From the IMG/VR virus record IMGVR_UViG_3300031227_000013: 64,000 bases of DNA. One strand, 5' to 3'. Source of the DNA: a virus. This document shows, in pieces, positions 17,749-51,107 of the stretch. Both the position numbers and the translations under genes were made by a program. Every line of letters starts with the position of its first letter. The stretch's first letter is position 1. The notes under the pieces were generated by a model, which was given only the letters and a program-made list of their open reading frames with translations, was not told the origin of the DNA and did no database searches.

Positions 17749-17787
17749 TATTATGCCAATAAAAAGAGTTTTATTAAGTAGCTAAAA
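17749..17787 (-). promoter_or_regulatory. Bipartite promoter-like motif upstream of the family A array
   Basis: Minus strand TAGCTA-CTTAA-N15-TGGCA-TAATA. Confidence 0.7.
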
Positions 17788-18018: not shown

Positions 18019-18053
18019 TATATACTGCCAAAAAAACAGCATTAATTAAGTAG
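18019..18053 (-). promoter_or_regulatory. Bipartite promoter-like motif
   Basis: CTTAA-N15-TGGCA-GTATA. Confidence 0.7.
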
Positions 18054-18818: not shown

Positions 18819-18859
18819 TATATAATGCCAACAAAAGGAGTTTTATTAAGTAGCTAAAA
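18819..18859 (-). promoter_or_regulatory. Bipartite promoter-like motif
   Basis: TAGCTA-CTTAA-N15-TGGCA-TTATA. Confidence 0.7.
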
Positions 18860-19006: not shown

Positions 19007-19048
19007 TATATAATGCCAATAAAATGGATTTAATTAAGTAGCTAAAAA
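19007..19048 (-). promoter_or_regulatory. Bipartite promoter-like motif
   Basis: TAGCTA-CTTAA-N15-TGGCA-TTATA. Confidence 0.7.
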
Positions 19049-19076: not shown

Positions 19077-20444
19077 TTATAACTTGGCATTCTCTCTGAC
19101 TTCATCGAAAGACATATCCCGCTTCAACTCCCCGTTCTCAAATACTACTTCGAGAAGATCTTCTCCTGAAGTCTGTTGTGAAACGGTGCGGAAAGTCTTG
19201 CCTTCCTTGATAAGCTTAAGTTTCCCGCGCTTACTGACTTTACTTTTGTCAACGGGATCCTTCCAGATATCATGCCAAATACCTTTACGGCGTTGTGCCG
19301 AAGACTTGAAAGCGAACCGCTGTGTATCACGATTAACCTTCTGTAACAGCCCTCCTCCCATACCGAAAACGATACAGTCGGAACTCCACCCATATGACTT
19401 TAGAGTATCCAGGATATGATTGATTCCTTCTTTATCAATCCCATCCCCCCAGAGAACTCCAATATTCGGATGTAGTGCTTTGTAGCCCTTACTGTTCTTA
19501 TAGCTACCAAACTTCTCTGCTAGAAGCTCAACAACTTTAAGGCTAGTACGTACAGGCTCCCCGGAATCCGGGCGAAAAACTACTTTACATTTACCTGTCA
19601 TTATCTTATTACCATATGCCTTGTGTGTATTCTCTATGAACTTTATGTAGTCGTATGAATCAATAACCACACTGAGTATACCTTCAGGATACTTATCAAG
19701 CAAACTTCCCATCATTTCCATCTCTCCGGCTTCCCCGAGAGCGGTCATTATACTGTGCTCAGTAGCTGGAACAGAATAAGCACATACAGGAGCGTTGTAA
19801 TACTCCATAGCAAACTCCAGAGCTTGTATAGTATCTGTGCCCTGGAAGTTTACAAGATGTCCTGCTCCTCCGGATCCTGCACTCTCCACACTGGATACTC
19901 CTCTGAACCCGAAATCATGCAGCATGAAATCAAGACGCTCCATGTTCTCTGAGGTGTTATTCAGATAGTTCTTCATCATCTTCTTACATTCCCGACTCAA
20001 CGTAGCTACTGTAGACGCGTACCACAAGTGCGTCAGCACAGTCTCAATGTATCCAGTTAACCACGGTGATTCGGTGTCAGTGTTCTGAACAGACATCATA
20101 ATATTATCTATGCTTATGGGTGTCCCCTCAGGAACGGCTTTTATGCGTACAGGTAACATGCCTTGATGCTTATCCAGCATGTTCTCCCATCCCTCTCTGT
20201 TGAAAGCTCCGGGACCTAGATGTGTATCTATTACAGCTTGTGCCTGCTGTATCTTACCAGCAGTCAGAACACTCCCTGTGAAGTATTCTTTAAGCAGATA
20301 CTGCAGCCCGAAGAATACAGTATTATTGAATGTCGCACCCTTTCTTGCTTCCATGTAACTGTATACATACTCGGTGCCTTCAGGCAGCATGGAAAAATGC
20401 CCCATTTTATATGAATCTGAAAGTAAACATATGTTATTTTTCAT
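19077..20444 (-). CDS. nadV: Nicotinamide phosphoribosyltransferase (NAMPT)
   Basis: SDSYK, LHDFGFRG, PATEHS, VIDSYD, RPDSG, WGDGI and FGMGGGLLQ motifs; start reset to MKNNICLL at 20444. Confidence 0.95.
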   Translation of the reverse strand: MKNNICLLSDSYKMGHFSMLPEGTEYVYSYMEARKGATFNNTVFFGLQYLLKEYFTGSVLTAGKIQQAQAVIDTHLGPGAFNREGWENMLDKHQGMLPVRIKAVPEGTPISIDNIMMSVQNTDTESPWLTGYIETVLTHLWYASTVATLSRECKKMMKNYLNNTSENMERLDFMLHDFGFRGVSSVESAGSGGAGHLVNFQGTDTIQALEFAMEYYNAPVCAYSVPATEHSIMTALGEAGEMEMMGSLLDKYPEGILSVVIDSYDYIKFIENTHKAYGNKIMTGKCKVVFRPDSGEPVRTSLKVVELLAEKFGSYKNSKGYKALHPNIGVLWGDGIDKEGINHILDTLKSYGWSSDCIVFGMGGGLLQKVNRDTQRFAFKSSAQRRKGIWHDIWKDPVDKSKVSKRGKLKLIKEGKTFRTVSQQTSGEDLLEVVFENGELKRDMSFDEVRENAKL

Positions 20445-20446
20445 TT

Positions 20447-21424
20447 TTATTTTCCCTCTGAAAATTGATTGTTGCCTAATGAAGATGTTTTTAGTCTTCC
20501 TATAACCCATCCGTTATGAGTATATTTAGGTAATTCCAATAGTGAAATCCTTTTAGAACTATCTTTTTCATTATTCATCCATACAGTATTTTTCATCTTT
20601 TTAGATATTTTATCTTTCTGAGACTGTGAAAAAATCTTTCTACCTTTAGTGCCTCCTTTTGCCCAACCCTCTTTTAAATATTCAGATAATTGACTAGAGT
20701 TTATTCTTGTTTGTCTATTATTTTTAGTAATGACTATACATCCTTTTACAGTACCTAAATTTTTTGTATTTATTCTCCCTCTCACCCATCCATCTTCTAA
20801 ATAATTAGTAAGTCGCACACCTTTAGCCATTTTATCAATCCCGTCCTTATTTATCCAAACGGTATTTTTACCCCCCTCTGATATTTTCTGTTTCACCTCA
20901 AGTCCATGAATATGTCCTTTATTTCCAAGCCCTATTTTATCTCTGGTAATTTGGCTATGGGTTTTCCTATGTAAAATAATTCTACCTTTAACCCAGCCCT
21001 TCTCGACATATTTATCCATTTCTTCTTGAACAATACGCCTACAAGTATCCCCTCTCTTTACCCATATCTTTTTTTTGTTTGTCTCAGAAATTTTTAATTT
21101 CCACTCATCATTCTCCTTAAGCATTTTTATATACCTGTCTCGAGCGTATTTATATATATGTGAGTTTGGTCTATCCCCTAAAGACATGCAAAAGCTATTA
21201 AAAGCATATATCAGTTTAAAATTTCCCCTATGTATTTTAACTAATATCCAATGGGCTAGAAAATGTTCTCTTGCTGTGAGTAGAACCAGATTATTTATAT
21301 CATTGGTTCCATTCATACATTTAGGTATAATATGATGACGCTCATAATAGATATCATCATCTATACTTCTGTTAGACTGCTGTGCTTTAGAAATTAAATT
21401 GTTGTATAGTCCTACGTTGTTCAC
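20447..21424 (-). mobile_element. Free-standing HNH homing endonuclease with NUMOD-type repeats
   Basis: YYERHHIIPKCMNG...NLVLLTAREHFLAH; repeated WVN/GWVRGR modules; sits between the two NAD genes; GGAGG RBS with GTG start. Confidence 0.85.
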
Positions 21425-25111: not shown

Positions 25112-26233
25112 TTATGAACTGTTAAACTCCTCTATGTTTTTTGAGTCATTACTCCTACTTATGAGTACGTTATCTATTCCCAATGTACTGGAAATAAATG
25201 TAATGAAGTCTGACTCATTATTACATCGTAGGAAACAACCTTTATAATAAAGACAATACTCCGACAGATGGTCGAGACATGTTACTACCAATGTCCGGGA
25301 ACCTGCGTTACGAATAACATCATCTTTATTAATAGCATACTCGAGCATAGACACATCGAGTATAGCTCTTCGAAACTCCCCCTGATACTTACCTGTTTGG
25401 TTTGTTTCCAGGGGGTCTGTCAATATATTATGTTTGATATCTTCCTTAGACATAAATCCGTTACCGTGCCTGGTCTGATAGGCTCTGGTTACCAGATATA
25501 TATGAAAGTCGGATGAACCTTGTATAGCGACAGCATTCTTACTTCCCGTGTTTGAACGTGTGACATTCGGGAAAAACCCAAAGTTCTGATCCAGTAGTAA
25601 TCCCTGTGACCCCTCGTAAATAGTAGAAGAATACTCAGGCATCTCGTGGACCAGTTTTATATCATCACATCTTGCTATCTTCTCACAGCTTTCATAGAAT
25701 GCAGTGAGAGAATATGTATCTCTTTTCTTAGTCATGTAATAATGTGCGATGAGACGAATTCTTTTTTTTAGAATCTCCGGATAGAACAAATCCATGAAAG
25801 TTAAGGAATAATGATCCTCTTCTCTCTGGAAAGTCTGCCCTACTCCAACACCACACGAACCATGCTTATTGACCTCTTCTGTTTCTCTGTTACTTCCTAT
25901 ATCATTAGGAGTAGTCACAGGACACTTGGCATCTATATAAATTACAGGCTTCAAACCTTTACTCTTAAGTAATTCATATTCTACCATCAAACCTACAGGC
26001 TCCACTGTACAATACTTAGACCAGTATGTAGGTAATCCCCTGAAAGTACCCGAACCGAAATTAGAGAATACATGTCTAAAATCCCCGGATACAACAGTAT
26101 GCCCAGCTTGGTGACCCCCTGAAAACCTAATGTTGAGGGCTTTAGTGGAAAACCAGGAATGAGCTAAGTAGTCTGTCACCAGACCCTTAGCTTCATCCCC
26201 TGCTCCCAGCCCCACGACGAGGCTACTGATCAC
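25112..26233 (-). CDS. Adenylosuccinate synthetase (PurA)-like protein
   Basis: GLGAGDEAKG, RFSGGHQAGHT, GSCGVG, EGSQGLLLD, TRHGNG and TCLD motifs. Confidence 0.85.
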   Translation of the reverse strand: MISSLVVGLGAGDEAKGLVTDYLAHSWFSTKALNIRFSGGHQAGHTVVSGDFRHVFSNFGSGTFRGLPTYWSKYCTVEPVGLMVEYELLKSKGLKPVIYIDAKCPVTTPNDIGSNRETEEVNKHGSCGVGVGQTFQREEDHYSLTFMDLFYPEILKKRIRLIAHYYMTKKRDTYSLTAFYESCEKIARCDDIKLVHEMPEYSSTIYEGSQGLLLDQNFGFFPNVTRSNTGSKNAVAIQGSSDFHIYLVTRAYQTRHGNGFMSKEDIKHNILTDPLETNQTGKYQGEFRRAILDVSMLEYAINKDDVIRNAGSRTLVVTCLDHLSEYCLYYKGCFLRCNNESDFITFISSTLGIDNVLISRSNDSKNIEEFNSS

Positions 26234-30280: not shown

Positions 30281-30317
30281 TATTATGCCAATAAACAGCC
30301 TTTAATTAAGCTAAAAA
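30281..30317 (-). promoter_or_regulatory. Bipartite promoter-like motif directly after a terminator
   Basis: TAG-CTTAA-N15-TGGCA-TAATA; terminator GAGAGAC/GTCTCTC at 30318-30337. Confidence 0.7.
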
Positions 30318-44486: not shown

Positions 44487-44519
44487 TATATAATGCCAAA
44501 AAAACAGCACTAATTAAGC
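44487..44519 (-). promoter_or_regulatory. Bipartite promoter-like motif
   Basis: CTTAA-N15-TGGCA-TTATA; a further partial copy at 44675-44707; each precedes a short hydrophobic ORF. Confidence 0.7.
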
Positions 44520-44702: not shown

Positions 44703-45050
44703 TTAAAACGTAAGCAAGTCCACTATGTGGTGTTCCGTAAGATATTCGTCCAGCATAAAATCAGGACAGTTATCTATTTTTTCCGCAGCCATCTTAATAA
44801 GGGCTTCCAGCCGACGGTATCGAGATGGCTTATTAACTGTACTGCTAACCATATTTAATACCTTATCAGTTGAATAATAAGATATACTGAATTCATCACT
44901 TCTTAAATGCAGAGCTGCGTACAACCCGAAGGATTTATCAGAAATAAAAAACCCGTCAACTCCATCTAAACTATATCTTTTAAGAACCTGTTGATGAAAC
45001 TGTCTGTCCTTCAGTATGTTCTCATAATCATCATTTGAAATAAAAACCAT
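44703..45050 (-). CDS. Hypothetical protein, weakly related to family C
   Basis: DNCPDFMLDEYL resembles DDCPNYVMEDYL in ORF 38907. Confidence 0.55.
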   Translation of the reverse strand: MVFISNDDYENILKDRQFHQQVLKRYSLDGVDGFFISDKSFGLYAALHLRSDEFSISYYSTDKVLNMVSSTVNKPSRYRRLEALIKMAAEKIDNCPDFMLDEYLTEHHIVDLLTF

Positions 45051-45187
45051 ATTTATCCTCTCGATTCATGACGTGTGTATGGACTTTTCCTGTTCTTCTT
45101 ACGTATAACAGGGAGTGTTCCATATCGACTCTTTTTTCTGAATATCTTATTTAATAATTTTTTCATTCCATCTCTCCTTTAAATGTA

Positions 45188-45229
45188 AAAAGGGTCCGGA
45201 AGAACCACCATCGAAATTCTTCCGGACCC
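45188..45229 (-). terminator. Strong intrinsic terminator (13-bp stem)
   Basis: GGGTCCGGAAGAA-N12-TTCTTCCGGACCC-TTTT. Confidence 0.8.
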
Positions 45230-45290
45230 GCCTGAAAGGAAGGAGTCAGCTCAAGCTCCAGCAGCATACTCCCCTAGATTAATTCTTATT

Positions 45291-45659
45291 TTATGCGCCT
45301 GCTAAACAATCTCTTACAGCACTTAGCGCTTGTATCGCATCATTCATTTTTTCCACTAACGAAGGATCAGTCCTCTGCCCCTCATCAAATACTTCCACAG
45401 GAGGTGTAACTACCGCTTCCGAAATACCCCCGCTTTTAGGGATTGTGTATCCGGCTACTGCATAAATATCTTCGTACACAGTTGTAGCCTTGGATAATAT
45501 TATTCCTTCTCTCTTAATTAATTCTTCGATCTTTTTCCGAGGTACTAATACCCCGTCTACTGTTTCTATTTTGAAAGGGACAATATCTTTTTCTTTTTTA
45601 AGTCCCATCTTTTTTAATTCTTCGTAAATACTATTCGAAACAAAAAATGCTTCGTCCAT
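45291..45659 (-). CDS. Hypothetical protein
   Basis: 122-aa ORF with AGGAG RBS. Confidence 0.6.
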   Translation of the reverse strand: MDEAFFVSNSIYEELKKMGLKKEKDIVPFKIETVDGVLVPRKKIEELIKREGIILSKATTVYEDIYAVAGYTIPKSGGISEAVVTPPVEVFDEGQRTDPSLVEKMNDAIQALSAVRDCLAGA

Positions 45660-45679
45660 AAACCCTCCTGGGTTTTAAG

Positions 45680-45994
45680 TTAAACTTCACCCTCTTTTGC
45701 TAAGTAAGCTGCAGTACTGGAATCAGAATCCATAGCATGTCCGGGTGTTTCATCCTCTATTGTTTCCTCGTCGGATGATGCTTCTAATTCTTCTGTTATA
45801 ATTCTTCTTATACACTCGTACATATCTGCCAGCCATATGTTGGATTCGAGGGAACTGTCTATATTTACCAATGCTTCAGGAGCCACTTCAGGATCCATAT
45901 TATCAACATCAATCCCCAGTTCTCTCAGCCTCTCCACCATTGTATCTTCCAGACATTCAAGTATACAATTAAGATTAAACAATTCTCCTGTCAT
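45680..45994 (-). CDS. Acidic hypothetical protein
   Basis: 104-aa ORF. Confidence 0.6.
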   Translation of the reverse strand: MTGELFNLNCILECLEDTMVERLRELGIDVDNMDPEVAPEALVNIDSSLESNIWLADMYECIRRIITEELEASSDEETIEDETPGHAMDSDSSTAAYLAKEGEV

Positions 45995-45999
45995 AATAG

Positions 46000-46035
46000 A
46001 AAAAATGGATCCCTCTAAAGGGAGGAGAGGGATCC
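46000..46035 (-). terminator. Intrinsic terminator closing the ubiquitin-like operon
   Basis: GGATCCCTCT-N9-AGAGGGATCC followed by ATTTTTT on the minus strand, 7 nt after the Ubl stop. Confidence 0.8.
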
Positions 46036-46042
46036 AGTTATA

Positions 46043-46456
46043 CTAGTTGTTTCCCTTGATCTGTTTGACCAAGAAAATATTTGCACCGTCAACAACTGCT
46101 GTGTCTTCGGATACGGTACTACCATTCATCTTAATCTCAAAGCCTTCGGCGTCGAGATCTGCAAGTTCCAGTACGGCCTCAATGGTCGTGCCAGATTCAA
46201 CAGCTAATTCCGAGAGTGTTCCAGGAACTTTACCAACTGTTACTACGCATTGATTTCCTTTGATCTGCTTGACCAGGAAAATATTTGCGCCGTCAGGAGC
46301 ATCGTCTGTCAAAGATGCGGTACTGCCGTTGACTTTAATTTCGAAACCCTCTGCATCGAGGTTTCCTGCTGCCAGGGCATCTGCAACTGTAGCGCCATTT
46401 TCGACGGCTACTTCTGAAAGTGTTCCTGGTACTTTTCCTACTGTGATTTGTTTCAT
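46043..46456 (-). CDS. Tandem two-copy ubiquitin-like (beta-grasp) protein, each unit ending LVKQIKG-N
   Basis: Two ~68-aa repeats (TVGKVPGTLSE.AVE.G.T...L....L.AEGFEIK.NG...DGANIFLVKQIKGN); ThiS/MoaD/Ub-type GaTv..aL and vNG patterns. Confidence 0.85.
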   Translation of the reverse strand: MKQITVGKVPGTLSEVAVENGATVADALAAGNLDAEGFEIKVNGSTASLTDDAPDGANIFLVKQIKGNQCVVTVGKVPGTLSELAVESGTTIEAVLELADLDAEGFEIKMNGSTVSEDTAVVDGANIFLVKQIKGNN

Positions 46457-46470
46457 TACTTATTCCTTTG

Positions 46471-47160
46471 TTATAACTTAAAGGTTTGTGTTATAGACAT
46501 ATATGGCCGCATGCCGTATATGATTTCGTTCTCGATTGGGTCTCCATTATTATGCTTCAGCATCTGCCAAACAGCTATTGTGGATATATTAACTGCTGTA
46601 GCAATTACTGAAACAGAAGAGCCACAGAGAGATTCTTCCGCCGTATCATCATCATATAGAGTAGCCTCCCACTTCTCTGCCTGATTAAGCATTGTCGGAA
46701 CGAAAGAATAAATTCTTCCGTTATCATCCCCCATTCTTGTTTCTACTATTAAATTAACACCGAACTTCATCTTTAGAAATTCAGTGAAAATTTCCTTACG
46801 TGAAGACATTGTATCTGTCAGGAGAAATACAATATTCCCCGGGACATATCCGCAACCCGTCTCCACTTTTTCATTGACAGCTTCTATTTCAATTTCCGTC
46901 AATTGTTTTATGAGCTCTTTAAGAGCGTCAACTTTGTACTTCCCTACATCAGACAGTCGGAACATTTGATTAGGAATATTGTGTTCTTCCACCTTATCAT
47001 AATCGAACACACGTATCTTTTTCACTCCCATCTTAGCGAGTAAATAAGCTACGTGTGAACCTGTTGCTCCAGCCCCTATTATGTCAACCTTCTTTGTAAA
47101 CAAATTAGGTTTAAAAACAGATAGCTGTCTATTATAGGAGATACTGGCAGGTATACCCAT
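46471..47160 (-). CDS. E1-like / ThiF-family adenylating enzyme
   Basis: IIGAGATGS, DYDKVEEHNIPNQ, GKYKVDA and LLTD motifs; no CxxC zinc pairs; single Cys in EESLCG. Confidence 0.92.
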   Translation of the reverse strand: MGIPASISYNRQLSVFKPNLFTKKVDIIGAGATGSHVAYLLAKMGVKKIRVFDYDKVEEHNIPNQMFRLSDVGKYKVDALKELIKQLTEIEIEAVNEKVETGCGYVPGNIVFLLTDTMSSRKEIFTEFLKMKFGVNLIVETRMGDDNGRIYSFVPTMLNQAEKWEATLYDDDTAEESLCGSSVSVIATAVNISTIAVWQMLKHNNGDPIENEIIYGMRPYMSITQTFKL

Positions 47161-48306
47161 CAGTCAATTTCCTGAAAGGAATACTTACCGACCTTCTTAT
47201 TTTTAGGAGGACGACCTGGTTTTCTCTTTTTACCTACTTTTTTTAAAGGAGTAGCTCCTTCAACTCCATCGTCCACATTATCCAATGGGTATGTCTTATG
47301 AACATTGTTTCCTCCTACAGGTCTTCCCTGATAGCCATTATTTCCATAGCCATTAGGTGAACCACCATATCCATGCTCGGAACCATGTCCTTGAAAACCA
47401 ATCCCACTCTGGTTCATACCCTGGTGATACCCAGCGGCGTTTTTTAGGCCACCATACACCATCTTGGTAACCTTTTCCTCGATCTGTCCTTTCCAGTATT
47501 CTACCTTAGGATCATCATCTTCATTTACCTGAATACTCCATGGGGCATCCTTGAGAGCAAGCCCTATATCATACTGAAAAATAGCGAACCCATATTCGCC
47601 TTTATTGTTTCCGATACATCTTATAAAGAATCTGTTTAGAGCTCCTTCGGAACCCTTAAGATTATCAGAAAATACTTCCATCTGTGTGTTATCCTGGCCG
47701 GACGGACCAACTCCGCCGCTTATGTGTGACATTCTGTTACTTAATAACCTACTAATGTAGGCGGGTATCCAGTTTCCTGATACCTCTCTATGTCTCCATA
47801 GAGATCAGACTATCGCTCGGCCCTCAGCATTACCTGTAGGGTTCTTCTCGCTTAGTCGTTGACCGTCCTTTAAATATCTTAAAGGTTCGGCAGGATTACC
47901 CTCGGCTTTACCGTTAGGGCTTCCCCCTCAATCAGAGAAGATTTTTCTAGTGACTGTTACCAGTCACGGGGCACTCACCTACTGCTTACGCAGCGTCACA
48001 TATTTTATGCCCCCAAAGGCGAATATTATTAGCTTCATCGGTTGTCATATCTCCGGAAGTTATAAGTTCCCCCATTAATTCAGCCAGTCCATCAGGAGTT
48101 ATTTCGGTTGTTCCACCGTTAACATCCTGTTGGGGAAGAGGTAATATATTATAAACTAAAAATACATTATCCTCTTCTTTACGTACAAGACCTAACCATC
48201 CTATTTCATCATCGCAGTTATTAATTATAATGTCCATGTCTTTTTTGACCTCAGGTAGTAATACTACCGAGGGCATTCCTTCATTTAACCATTCGACTGT
48301 AGGCAT
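47160..48306 (-). CDS. JAB/JAMM metallopeptidase, 289 aa after splicing: join(48306..48007, 47729..47160)
   Basis: Exon 1 ends DEIGWLG...LWGH; exon 2 starts SHISGGVGPSGQD; joined they give E...HSHx7SxxD exactly. Confidence 0.9.
47730..48006 (-). ncRNA. Group I self-splicing intron (277 nt, no ORF) inside the JAB gene
   Basis: 5' exon ends in U, intron ends in G; P1 U.G pair possible; P3 TCTTCTC/GAGAAGA; P7 GACTA/TAGTC; P9 TCTCTATG-GAGA-CATAGAGA; GNRA-capped peripheral stems; removal restores frame and catalytic motif. Confidence 0.9.
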
Positions 48307-49796
48307 TACATTATGTCCTTATCTTTATCGTCACGGTCTTTCCAAGCAACAACCGTTCCGTCCTCTTTGACCAAAGGCCATCTGTTTACATACTTACCAG
48401 CGGCATCGTCAACATTAACGTTTTCGAGGTAGAGTATACACAGAGCTGCTATGGCACTGTAGTTATGAGCTGCTCTGATCTGAGGGAGCGATTCCACCAG
48501 ATCTCCCAGACAGGGTTTACCATCAGGAAATACATGCGGAGCATGCATCCCTCTGGAGTTATATCCCGTAATCTGCTGAGTAGTATTTAACATTAGTATT
48601 TCTTTATTAACATCTGTAGGAACTTCAATACGAAAAGCTCCGACCTCGTGGTTAAGTTTCGTACGTGGGTCAATAACATATACTGTATCTGTTATTATAT
48701 GTACCCCGTCCTTAACAATCCGTACTCCTCTGACATGCTTCTGGGAATACAGGTCACGAATCATTTTGTTAGCTCTTTCATCAAAATTATTCGATGTACC
48801 TGCTTCAACCATCTGCATCTTTGCAGTACGATCTCTTAATTTAAGCGTCAAATGTCCCTGATGCTTTTCAATCTCTTTTGAAAGTTTATCAATTGTGTCC
48901 TGCAGCCCTTTATACTCGACTGAAAGAACATCCTCAACAAACTTTATCAGCCTTTCCCGATCTTTCTTCTCACGGGTCTTGGCGATATCAGCGACTTCTG
49001 ACTTGAGTTGCTCCGTTCCCAGTTGCTCTTTGAATAGCTCCAAAGATTTTCTGAAAATGGTGATTGCTGAAATGGAAGGCTTCTGAACCGCATCCCATAG
49101 AAAATAGAGATGATTCGGTTTAACATATTCCATTATTGCAACACCTGTCTTAGGATCATTAATTCCCACCCCACTGTCTGTAAGAGGGAACATAGGATCT
49201 TCACAGCCTACTTTCTTTCCGAATAGACTTGATGGAGGAATTAACTTACCATCAGCTCCGCCTATCAGACTATCTGCTTTAGGAGAAGACCATACTCTAA
49301 TATTCAGGTCATGCTCACAGTCCTCAGGAAGTTCAATATCCCCGTTAGGAACTGTAACAGATACATTCGTATATACATCCTGTAACACTTCTTCAACAAC
49401 TTTTATGAAGTCTTCACGACCACGTCCATCCCACTTATCGGGAGATGATTGTACTGTGATACTTCCAGATCCCGCACTTACTACCTCGGCCTCATTAGGG
49501 GCTGGAGGTGCAACGGGCGGTATATCTTCCAGAGGATCAGGAACTACTTCTTCAGCCGTTACTTCTACTTGTGGAGTATCATTATTGGTTCTTTCCCGGA
49601 AAGTTGTTCTTAGAAAAGAAATACCTTCAAACATTGTTCGTTCATCATTAAACTCTATATTCTGTCCCATTACCGGATGTACTTCTACCCGAGGTATCAG
49701 AAATCCGTCCACATCATTGATGTTGAATGTAGGTGAGCTACCAGCCCAGCCCAATTCAGTTAGTTTGTCTAGTTGTTCTCGTGTTACGAAATACAT
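48306..49796 (-). CDS. E2-like (UBC fold) protein with large N-terminal region and coiled coil
   Basis: C-terminal HAPHVFPDGKPCLG matches the E2 HPx(V/I)xxxGxxCL signature; TAATG-coupled to JAB. Confidence 0.8.
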   Translation of the reverse strand: MYFVTREQLDKLTELGWAGSSPTFNINDVDGFLIPRVEVHPVMGQNIEFNDERTMFEGISFLRTTFRERTNNDTPQVEVTAEEVVPDPLEDIPPVAPPAPNEAEVVSAGSGSITVQSSPDKWDGRGREDFIKVVEEVLQDVYTNVSVTVPNGDIELPEDCEHDLNIRVWSSPKADSLIGGADGKLIPPSSLFGKKVGCEDPMFPLTDSGVGINDPKTGVAIMEYVKPNHLYFLWDAVQKPSISAITIFRKSLELFKEQLGTEQLKSEVADIAKTREKKDRERLIKFVEDVLSVEYKGLQDTIDKLSKEIEKHQGHLTLKLRDRTAKMQMVEAGTSNNFDERANKMIRDLYSQKHVRGVRIVKDGVHIITDTVYVIDPRTKLNHEVGAFRIEVPTDVNKEILMLNTTQQITGYNSRGMHAPHVFPDGKPCLGDLVESLPQIRAAHNYSAIAALCILYLENVNVDDAAGKYVNRWPLVKEDGTVVAWKDRDDKDKDIM

Positions 49797-49958
49797 TTAT
49801 CCCTTTCTATGTTAAAATTAATTTCGTTTTATATAGATAAAGCAGATAAGGGTGGCAGGCCGTCTGGGCAAAACCCTGTTTCATGACCACCATTTTGTAT
49901 AAAAATACTCGGCCTCATATCCGCTAAAAACAATGATAGTTATATCATCTTAGTAATC

Positions 49959-49988
49959 TATTATGCCACAAAAACGCGATAAATTAAG
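49959..49988 (-). promoter_or_regulatory. Bipartite promoter-like motif upstream of the ubiquitin-like operon
   Basis: CTTAA-N15-TGGCA-TAATA, ~165 nt before the E2 start. Confidence 0.7.
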
Positions 49989-50439
49989 TTCGAAGATACT
50001 GCTCGTCACAAGTTATCGCAACAGCTAGGGCTGAATATATATCCGACTTAAATCCTTTAAGTTTACCTTTAGGTCGTTTTCCCGGAATTAGGTCAGGTTC
50101 GAATCGATCGAGTAGCTCCTGACGTATTCCACAGTCTTTAGCGGCTCCTGTGCCGCAGATATACTTTTTCTCGTCGACACGCTTTATTCTGTAGTGTGTT
50201 CCTTTAAAAGCCTGCATACATTTTCCTATAAAGAAACAGGTTTCAAAAGTCTCTTTTCCGACTCGGGCTCCATACGAACATATGGTCTCTATCGCCATTA
50301 CATCAGCCTGTCCACCTTCTACAATACCCAGCATTCTCTCATTACTTATTTTACCGAATGCATAAATTTCCTCTGTCTCATTATTATACGTAACATACCC
50401 AGATTCCGTAGTTCCGGGGTCTACTCCTAATATTATCAT
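49984..50439 (-). CDS. ruvC: RuvC-like Holliday junction resolvase
   Basis: ILGVDPG, AIET and SDIYSALAVA catalytic pattern. Confidence 0.8.
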   Translation of the reverse strand: MIILGVDPGTTESGYVTYNNETEEIYAFGKISNERMLGIVEGGQADVMAIETICSYGARVGKETFETCFFIGKCMQAFKGTHYRIKRVDEKKYICGTGAAKDCGIRQELLDRFEPDLIPGKRPKGKLKGFKSDIYSALAVAITCDEQYLRT

Positions 50440-51107
50440 GTCATTACCTTTCTTCCGGGAATATACACCTCTTCATCACTTGTTCTTCCCAGTATGTTTT
50501 TTAGTATTTCATCCATCATTACCGTATTCTGTTCCGCCACTGTATACGGACCCATCTTACAATCATACTCTTCCCCCAGCCGGTCTTCGTAATTAGTATT
50601 CAGAGGACACCGATATCCGGAAGACGCTTTCTTACTTACAAGCTTGCATATGTCCTTAAGAGGCCCTTTAAAACTAGCTAGAGTTTCTCCAAAAGATCTA
50701 CGTACAGATTCGTAGTCAGATATAGCCAGGCAGGGCTTGTAGTTCATGTACTCTTTCAGCCCGACCCAACTATTACCGGCTATCAGCTTTCTGTTCCACC
50801 AGTCATTATTGTATACTATGTAGGATATGTTATTCTCCTGCATAAGCCCGACCAGTTTATTTTCTACTACTTCGGGCAGGACAGCCTCTGCATAATAACT
50901 GTTGATAGATATTCCGGTATACTGCATGTTGCCCCTTACATTACCTCCCAGAACATATTCGTTATACAGAACTCCTTTAAGCATATAAGCTACCTGAACA
51001 ATAGCGGCGTCTGCTTTTACTGAATCAGACGCCATGTTCAATACTATATAATTATCAGGATCCTGTACCCCTGCCTTCTCTTTAAGAAACTCCCTGATAA
51101 TACCCAT
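50436..51107 (-). CDS. Possibly degenerate DnaQ-like 3'-5' exonuclease fold
   Basis: Pattern IVQVAY...YTGIS...VYN resembles DEDDh exonucleases but the first acidic residues are missing. Confidence 0.35.
   Translation of the reverse strand: MGIIREFLKEKAGVQDPDNYIVLNMASDSVKADAAIVQVAYMLKGVLYNEYVLGGNVRGNMQYTGISINSYYAEAVLPEVVENKLVGLMQENNISYIVYNNDWWNRKLIAGNSWVGLKEYMNYKPCLAISDYESVRRSFGETLASFKGPLKDICKLVSKKASSGYRCPLNTNYEDRLGEEYDCKMGPYTVAEQNTVMMDEILKNILGRTSDEEVYIPGRKVMT

Follow-up and report, generated by a model that had tools for sequence, protein, structure and literature searches.

In prokaryotes, conjugation of ubiquitin-like (Ubl) proteins has so far been characterized as a weapon of the host against phages: in type II CBASS, in Bil and probably in Bub. 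Among the closest described systems is Bil (BilABCD; Hor et al. 2023/24; Chambers et al. 2023/24); a multi-unit Ubl, an E2, a JAB deubiquitinase and an E1 are encoded there in one operon, and conjugation proceeds without a dedicated E3. Here we analyze a cassette with the same kinds of genes (E2-like protein, JAB/JAMM peptidase, minimal E1 and di-Ubl precursor) in DNA from a virus, IMG/VR record IMGVR_UViG_3300031227_000013. The analyzed stretch of 64,000 nucleotides, 'the window', corresponds to bases 82,901-146,900, reverse strand, of this record, which has 185,256 bp and direct terminal repeats and is rated in IMG/VR as a 100% complete phage. Thus, a complete phage genome carries the compact operon, and the statement of the original prediction for this DNA, that the phage itself has the full cascade of genes, stands. 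The expected catalytic residues all appear, from alignments, to be conserved across a large family of relatives. We give a probability of about 0.66 to the interpretation of the cassette as a phage-owned Ubl protein-conjugation system, which would be independent of E3 and would draw its tags from a precursor of polyubiquitin style.

The four genes are tightly packed on the minus strand, in the order E2-like, JAB, E1, di-Ubl, between a promoter-like motif and a terminator (positions here and below are those of the window):

49964-49988, minus strand: promoter-like motif CTTAAT-N14-TGGCA(TAAT), ~170 nt upstream of the E2-like start; a candidate promoter.
48306-49796, minus strand: E2-like protein, 496 aa; open reading frame with a modelled C-terminal UBC-fold domain.
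48007-48306, minus strand: JAB/JAMM exon 1, residues 1-100, ending in LWGH; open reading frame aligned with residues 1-100 of intron-less homologues.
47730-48006, minus strand: group I intron (Rfam RF00028), 277 nt, without an open reading frame, between two zinc-binding His codons.
47160-47729, minus strand: JAB/JAMM exon 2, residues 101-289; SHx7SxxD, then a Gly/Tyr/Asn-rich tail and the basic end KKRKPGRPPKNKK.
46471-47160, minus strand: minimal E1, ThiF/MoeB-type adenylation domain (Pfam ThiF), 229 aa; GAGATG, D53-x-D55, Cys179.
46043-46456, minus strand: di-Ubl precursor, 137 aa; two predicted beta-grasp units (Pfam ThiS).
46000-46036, minus strand: intrinsic terminator; GC-rich stem of 10-11 bp, loop of 9-11 nt, T6.

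Four consecutive genes on one strand with two 1-nt overlaps had been predicted and were found; the overlap reads TAATG where the E2-like gene meets JAB, and TGATG where JAB meets E1.

In comparison with Bil, the cassette is encoded by a phage, its E1 is a bare adenylation domain of 229 aa and its E2 is fused to ~335 extra residues; also, no defence-system or NCBIfam model names its E2-like protein or JAB (PADLOC v2.0.0 of 2023 may hold no Bil models). The Bil tag is a fused two-domain protein ending in Gly, whereas each Ubl unit of the cassette carries its own Lys-Gly-Asn (K-G-N) tail and, therefore, the cassette Ubl looks like a cleavable precursor. In Bil the Gly is the last residue, and just 12 homologues have overhangs beyond it (Hor et al., bioRxiv 10.1101/2023.09.04.556158); in the cassette it is capped, by Asn in nearly all units.

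Eukaryotic polyubiquitin genes (UBB, UBC, yeast UBI4) share with the cassette spacer-free head-to-tail units with tails of their own, an extra capping residue at the very end, a variable copy number (1-3 in relatives of the cassette) and the need for a deubiquitinase to produce monomers. The cassette differs in that its units are only 67% identical, end in K-G-N rather than R-G-G and have Asn after every unit, not after the last one only; the presumed processing enzyme is a JAMM peptidase of the same operon, which is predicted to make the cuts.

Operons of type 6d (Iyer, Burroughs, Aravind 2006, PMC1779556), or PRTRC, also combine on mobile elements a Ubl, a JAB, a small E1 and an E2-like protein without the HPN His; in gene content, operon types 6d and 6e (PMC1779556) equal the cassette. 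However, the cassette E2-like protein has a His 8 residues before its Cys, whereas the His of 6d stands after the Cys (PMC1779556), and the cassette has neither ParB nor the alpha-helical partner gene. The PRTRC_ThiF model (TIGR03736) gave the E1 a sub-threshold score of 51.8 bits (cut-off 144.75). Prok-E2_D matched 0 of 92 members of the E2-like family and offers a structural lead only (template-modelling score 0.48).

The archaeal SAMP/UbaA/JAMM1 system and Bub (BubABCD) resemble the cassette in their small ThiS-like tag, minimal E1 and JAMM peptidase; in structure comparisons, PfJAMM1 and Citrobacter BubCD rank among the best matches of the cassette JAB, and BubCD also matches the E1. Sampylation has no E2, in contrast to the cassette. 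Bub pathways work through Ser oxyesters, and their peptidase-E1 fusion lacks a catalytic Cys (PMC11601596), whereas the cassette has a conserved Cys in its E1 as well as in its E2, and its genes are not fused. The cassette is, then, a separate family, a member of neither Bil nor CBASS nor Bub; by analogy, it would work like a Ubl conjugation cascade.

The E1 matched Pfam ThiF (PF00899) with 73.3 bits (E-value 2.2e-20, cut-off 28.1) and PADLOC E1-E2 models with E-values down to 1e-15. The original prediction had named GAGATG, DYDKVEEHN and one Cys in this protein; both motifs are there, at residues 29 and 53 (the latter providing D53-x-D55), but the Cys residues are two, 103 and 179. Only Cys179 is conserved: in its segment, S-L-C-G-S-S, it is kept in 27 of 27 cassette E1s, homologues from cultured phages included. 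This context may resemble the catalytic-Cys segment of UBA5. The nearest E1 relatives with solved structures (MccB, PaaA, UBA5, UBA1, Cap2, Uba4, ThiF and BubCD) are all matched via the Rossmann part.

Minimal-E1 homologues with 25-33% identity, the conserved Cys kept, occur in Xanthomonas phage PhiXhv-12 (L001), in a crAss-like Kolpuevirus of Bacteroides (L002) and in Flavobacterium phage FpV4 (L003). In the records of cultured phages, such homologues bear the label 'thiamine biosynthesis protein', which is probably misleading. The gene adjoining the homologue in the crAss-like phage is annotated as a metalloprotease and the one in FpV4 has a weak JAB match (E-value 3e-4); the E2-like and JAB profiles found no partners beside the ThiF homologues of Xanthomonas jumbo or crAss-like phages.

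With the intron (47730-48006) taken out, the JAB becomes a protein of 289 aa that reads LWGH followed by SHISGGVGPSGQD at the junction. Its zinc site, WGHSHISGGVGPSGQD, has the JAMM arrangement E...HxHx7Sx2D, so that the HSHx7SxxD expected upon splicing was indeed obtained. The spliced WGHSHx7SxxD aligns across the junction without gaps with four uninterrupted homologues from other contigs; residues E35, H102, S103, H104, S112 and D115 are invariant in the 81-sequence alignment of the JAB family. The AlphaFold2 model of the closest, intron-less homologue (P0011) has the MPN fold, with a predicted local distance difference test score (pLDDT) of 84. A Foldseek search with this model gave 238 matches at E ≤ 0.001, with Rpn11 at 4.5e-8 and PfJAMM1 at 1.1e-7; the matches between 4.5e-8 and 1e-6, with probability 1.0, were to Rpn11, Pyrococcus JAMM1 with SAMP2, CSN5, AMSH, BRCC36 and Citrobacter BubCD. 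At the level of sequence models, the best score with Pfam Prok-JAB/JAB was 18.6 bits (homologue L006; cut-off 25), and the window exons had no match to them.

The JAB tail (47160-47300, minus strand) has a low-complexity Gly/Tyr/Asn-rich stretch before the terminal KKRKPGRPPKNKK, which in sequence resembles an AT-hook, GRP with basic flanks. The tail of the L006 homologue has KKKGRPKGSKN; other relatives are without an AT-hook-like tail.

The element interrupting the JAB gene is the sole group I intron in the window. It scored 58.9 bits with Rfam RF00028 (gathering score 50) with P3-P9 aligned, is preceded by U and ends with G, and its 277 nt have a minimum free energy of -96.8 kcal/mol (z = -5.5); its removal restores the reading frame of the host gene. 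Among 106 loci with the JAB family the window copy is the only split one, with the break at position 115/116 of the family's hidden Markov model (HMM); a blastn search with the intron against phage records gave one 42-nt match of chance level. Since the intron parts two zinc-binding His codons, an active JAB would require splicing and, should uncapping of the tag rely on the JAB, so would the pathway as a whole.

In the E2-like protein we distinguish an alpha/beta domain (residues 1-66), a disordered linker, a second domain (112-240), long helices (242-334) and a C-terminal domain (336-476). The AlphaFold2 model, made from a 92-sequence alignment, has pLDDT 90. In this model the C-terminal domain shows the order alpha, beta-meander, loop and three helices, i.e. 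the UBC fold, on which the original prediction had made its E2 assignment depend. The best 50 PDB matches of this domain in Foldseek were almost all E2 enzymes, with weak E-values (7e-3 to 0.5). In the ESM Atlas its first named structural neighbour is the Prok-E2_D cluster mentioned above, and the nearest unnamed clusters are 50-100% viral.

The classical active-site pattern of E2 enzymes is H-P-N-I-x3-G-x2-C-L. The predicted motif HAPHVFPDGKPCLG is present at residue 418 of the E2-like protein, and the loop A419-P420-H421-V-F-P-D-G426-K-P-C429-L-G (P-H-V-x3-G-x2-C-L) is in register with the classical one, the Cys being located eight residues past the (H)P(N) position. In place of the HPN triad the loop reads A-P-H, with His421 where the Asn would be and, in 80 of the 92 sequences, Ala where the first His would be. 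Conservation is high at His421 (92/92), Cys429 (91/92), Pro420 (91/92) and Gly426 (90/92). Curated E2 models (UQ_con, Prok-E2_A to E) matched 0 of 92 family members at E ≤ 0.01, Pfam models gave coiled-coil noise only for the same 92, and profile searches of PDB sequences, with the E2-like and the JAB alignments alike, returned coiled-coil or chance matches only. Although each separate line of evidence is moderate, taken together they make it likely that the C-terminal domain of the 496-aa protein is an E2.

Neither the E2-like protein nor the JAB exons had a usable match in Pfam, PADLOC, PHROGs or NCBIfam, and no model of these collections recognizes either family. Both families are large: the E2-like profile found 3,289 cluster representatives at E ≤ 0.001 and the JAB profile 2,703 proteins, none of them annotated by Pfam. 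A survey of gene order in phage and bacterial DNA revealed the same cassette in ~100 other loci, mostly in IMG/VR phage contigs of 5-217 kb, with some copies in bacterial chromosomes. In 25 loci anchored by the E2-like gene, the genes of E2-like protein, JAB, E1 and Ubl were almost always adjacent, mostly in the order seen in the window. The 80 IMG/VR loci anchored by JAB included 43 with all four genes, 15 with E1, JAB and Ubl, 13 with E1 and JAB, and 7 with E1, E2-like protein and JAB. E1 and JAB occurred together in 78 of these 80 and the E2-like protein was detected in 50; narrow profiles probably miss some partner genes.

Copies in apparently genuine bacterial chromosomes were seen in Candidatus Uhrbacteria (L010, beside rpmB and hflX), in a 1.2-Mb contig (L011) and in a metagenome-assembled genome (MAG) of Obscuribacter (L030, beside genes of ClpB type and of non-ribosomal peptide synthetase type). 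All 11 matches in species-representative genomes were in MAG contigs of scattered taxonomy, some of which may be mis-binned phages. The cassette family is mobile and, among the samples seen, mostly viral. The view taken in the original prediction, that such sets are normally host defence loci, fails for this family; carriage by phages is the rule in this large, separate and mainly phage-borne family. Against 50,697 phage records, neither megablast with 45000-51000 nor tblastn with the E2-like protein produced a match, and a pattern search of IMG/VR that used the single E2-like protein found none.

In 13 loci (L014-L018, L023, L024, L028-L030 and others) the E2-like genes are two tandem paralogues, of which the longer has 550-700 aa and the shorter ~290-480 aa; this suggests a pair of an E2 and an E2 variant. 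A regulator of the TrmB family adjoins the cassette in L008 and L011.

In the searched literature, which most subscription journals lay outside of, we found no description of a phage-encoded E1/E2/JAB/Ubl cassette, and sets of these genes were treated only as bacterial anti-phage defences; no phage-encoded cassette is described in Iyer 2006 (PMC1779556), Iyer 2021, a 2026 jumbo-phage review, Hor 2023 or Chambers 2023.

The di-Ubl precursor scored 27.9 bits with Pfam ThiS (cut-off 22.5) and 26.6 bits with SAMP2, just short of the cut-off; from their sequences, the units are probably beta-grasp domains. Two units, residues 1-68 and 69-136, follow each other head to tail, each ending in IKG-N, and one final Asn is added; the predicted end, IKGN, was found at residues 65 and 133. 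Relatives hold one, two or three units (close relatives two or three); one, on a 185-kb contig, has three units, seen as three ThiS stretches with 55.8 bits. This multi-unit layout is that of a polyubiquitin precursor. A word-index homologue search with one Ubl unit retrieved only the window protein itself, and a Ubl-pattern scan of IMG/VR only 2 further loci. With this, the predicted identities of all four proteins are supported at the level of fold and motif; conjugation is what we infer from them.

The cascade could operate as follows. The operon would be transcribed from the phage-specific promoter-like motif as far as the terminator, and the JAB mRNA would self-splice its group I intron, restoring the HxH zinc site. 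The JAB would then treat the di-Ubl as deubiquitinases treat polyubiquitin and cleave behind each Lys-Gly, taking off the Asn cap and freeing two tags of ~67 aa. Using ATP, the E1 would adenylate the new C-terminus of a tag and load the tag onto Cys179, from where it would be handed to Cys429 of the E2-like domain, with His421 at the position of the classical HPN Asn. The N-terminal domains and the coiled coil of the E2-like protein would choose the target, whose lysines would be tagged directly; the JAB may also be able to remove tags.

Several points weigh against this interpretation. The analysis turned up neither a target nor an E3, and for every family member the case for conjugation comes from computation. 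The role of Cys179 as the catalytic Cys of the crossover loop is tentatively assigned from its conservation, and the E1 has no ubiquitin-fold domain for recruitment of E2. Finally, the tag ends in K-G-N, not in G-G, and the Asn persists even in genes that stop right behind it, an oddity for a mere cap.

Statistics of the tail were collected from E2- and JAB-anchored loci, a sample unbiased for the Ubl end; the Ubl-pattern scan was not used here because it is biased to GN tails. Nearly all of ~95 full-length units end in (K/D/V)-G-N, and the C-terminal Gly-Gly of ThiS/MoaD type is not seen. Among single-unit genes, about one in two has its stop codon immediately behind the Asn; the others continue with 1-3 variable residues or with a further unit. 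The residue following Asn is free (Q, M, V, S, T, A, K, C, I, L or E). A small subgroup (L065, L085, L093, L097, L106) ends in G-A-stop rather than G-N, which makes Gly the invariant tail position. Two readings of the tail may be considered. The JAB may cut after Gly, with Asn as a conserved one-residue cap or P1' residue; this fits since Gly is held constant in the G-A subgroup. Otherwise, Asn may be a part of the mature tag end; this fits since the invariant Asn precedes a variable residue and genes end exactly at GN. We moderately favour the first reading and hold the second to be the less probable. To our knowledge, every characterized JAMM enzyme cuts directly after the terminal Gly.

One could go further and suppose that the modifier ends in Asn and that the chemistry is non-classical, which we regard as unlikely, yet as the strongest alternative to a classical cascade. 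Release would then occur after Asn, or no cut would be made if the gene ends in GN-stop, and the E1 would act on the C-terminal Asn, either in the way MccB acts on microcin C7 (producing a succinimide or a nucleotidylated end) or with the Asn-terminated tag still passed to E2 and target. The near-constant G-N, the many single-unit genes stopping after Asn and the free residue behind it, the pattern expected of a P1 residue, all speak in favour of such a tag end; moreover, MccB (1.7e-9) and PaaA (3.3e-8) are the best solved relatives of the E1, ahead of UBA5. The match to MccB is, however, limited to the generic Rossmann part (E1 residues 15-95, MccB residues 111-193). The E1 has just 14 residues before the aligned part, where MccB has its N-terminal peptide clamp, and MccB has no use for an E2 or for a conserved E1 Cys. 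Thus, a role of MccB type is weakened by an E1 too short for the clamp and by an E2 left unexplained, while the G-A-stop minority and the known cleavage site of JAMM peptidases argue against Asn as the tag end.

Even less probable is a purely counter-defensive role, in which the JAB would strip conjugates made by host systems of Bil or CBASS type, or Ubl and E1 would soak up host enzymes, with little or no tagging directed by the phage. Host Ubl systems do attack phages (Hor et al., bioRxiv 10.1101/2023.09.04.556158; Chambers et al., PMC10557695), and the cassette is situated in the early/replication region, among replication and recombination genes. Yet a decoy or a lone deubiquitinase needs no conserved E1 Cys, no E2 Cys and His and no processed poly-Ubl, all of which are kept jointly in dozens of phage loci; besides, the same cassette is present in bacterial chromosomes.

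That the Ubl is a sulfur carrier, a ThiS/MoaD-type thiocarboxylate for thiolation of a cofactor, tRNA or DNA that the JAB merely unmasks, as in CysO/Mec+ or QbsE/QbsD, we consider very improbable. In its favour, the Ubl and the E1 have ThiS and ThiF as their best sequence models, and sulfur systems made up of JAB, E1 and Ubl have been described (Iyer et al. 2006, PMC1779556). Against it, an E2-like protein with near-invariant Cys and invariant His accompanies the JAB in 50 of 80 phage loci, the tail has K-G-N in place of G-G, and a stoichiometric carrier would have no use for multi-unit precursors. In addition, a search of the complete genome for ThiG, MoaE, rhodanese and PP-loop thiolase families came back empty while its positive controls were detected; the original prediction had noted the lack of sulfur-cofactor genes nearby.

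Returning to conjugation as the preferred interpretation, we think it somewhat more probable than its opposite that large phages widely own an E3-independent Ubl system of an undescribed family. With its K-G-N poly-precursor and an E2 that finds targets by itself, such a system would tag host or phage proteins in infection and be a viral mirror of Bil; in the phage considered here the deubiquitinase would be gated by an intron.

As to expression of the operon, the predicted repeat CTTAA-N15-TGGCA occurs exactly 7 times in the window, in every case on the coding strand:

17754-17778, 18026-18050, 18826-18850, 19014-19038, 30286-30310, 44494-44518 and 49964-49988, all minus strand: motif copies, exact match.

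With one mismatch allowed, 15 matches were counted against 4.3 +/- 2.3 in shuffled sequences, and 0 of 100 shuffles reached 15. The copies are alike beyond the core (CTTAAT...TTTTnTTGGCA, then TAATA or TATATA), and the motif, CTTAAT-N14-TGGCA, may be a phage-specific promoter-like element of one temporal class of transcription units. The terminator has the arms TGGATCCCTC and GAGGGATCCA followed by T6 (-19.1 kcal/mol, z = -3.96); its predicted 10-bp stem was recovered, while its distance from the Ubl stop needs correction, as the stem begins 6 nt, rather than 7, 3' of the stop.

Nearly all genes of the window are on the minus strand. Besides the cassette, they code for DNA polymerase, UvsX-like recombinase, Rnl1-type RNA ligase, NAMPT (19077-20510, E-value 1.4e-156), PurZ-like adenylosuccinate synthetase (25112-26233, minus strand; PHROG 1211, E-value 2.9e-51), HNH endonuclease and RuvC-like resolvase; the source element is a large tailed phage. 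The PurZ-like gene hints at 2-aminoadenine (Z-base) DNA in this phage. One more gene shares a domain with the cassette:

45291-45659, minus strand: small protein, 122 aa, two genes downstream of the operon; N-terminal domain common to the E2-like protein.

This domain of ~60 residues matches residues 2-59 of the E2-like protein (BLASTP E-value 1e-5), and the E2-like family HMM finds both the 122-aa protein and the matching gene of relative L005 (5964-6359) with E-values of about 1e-3 to 2e-4. A functional link of the 122-aa protein to the cassette is tentative.

A third Ubl-like domain was observed outside the window (G000:C1:183774-184484, plus strand, the same as L117:1264-1974), with a LAGLIDADG endonuclease gene immediately upstream. 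It shares 42% identity with unit 2 of the operon (BLASTP E-value 3e-13) and lies within a protein of 236 aa whose N-terminus is rich in Ser/Thr/Lys and whose C-terminal tail is rich in Cys; KYGAF replaces IKGN. As candidate roles of this protein we consider a Ubl-domain adaptor, a fusion precursor and a target mimic.

Many viruses of eukaryotes manipulate ubiquitination. If our interpretation is true, a cascade owned by a phage shows that bacterial viruses use protein tagging as well. The cassette recurs in about a hundred sampled viral contigs, and its E2-like and JAB families are each thousands strong. Cultured phages with minimal-E1 homologues could serve as experimental models. The four proteins would, again if true, make up a compact testbed for a polyubiquitin-type precursor outside eukaryotes, for the chemistry of a Gly-Asn tail, for transfer from a 229-aa E1 to an E2 without a ubiquitin-fold domain and for the choice of targets by an E2 without an E3.

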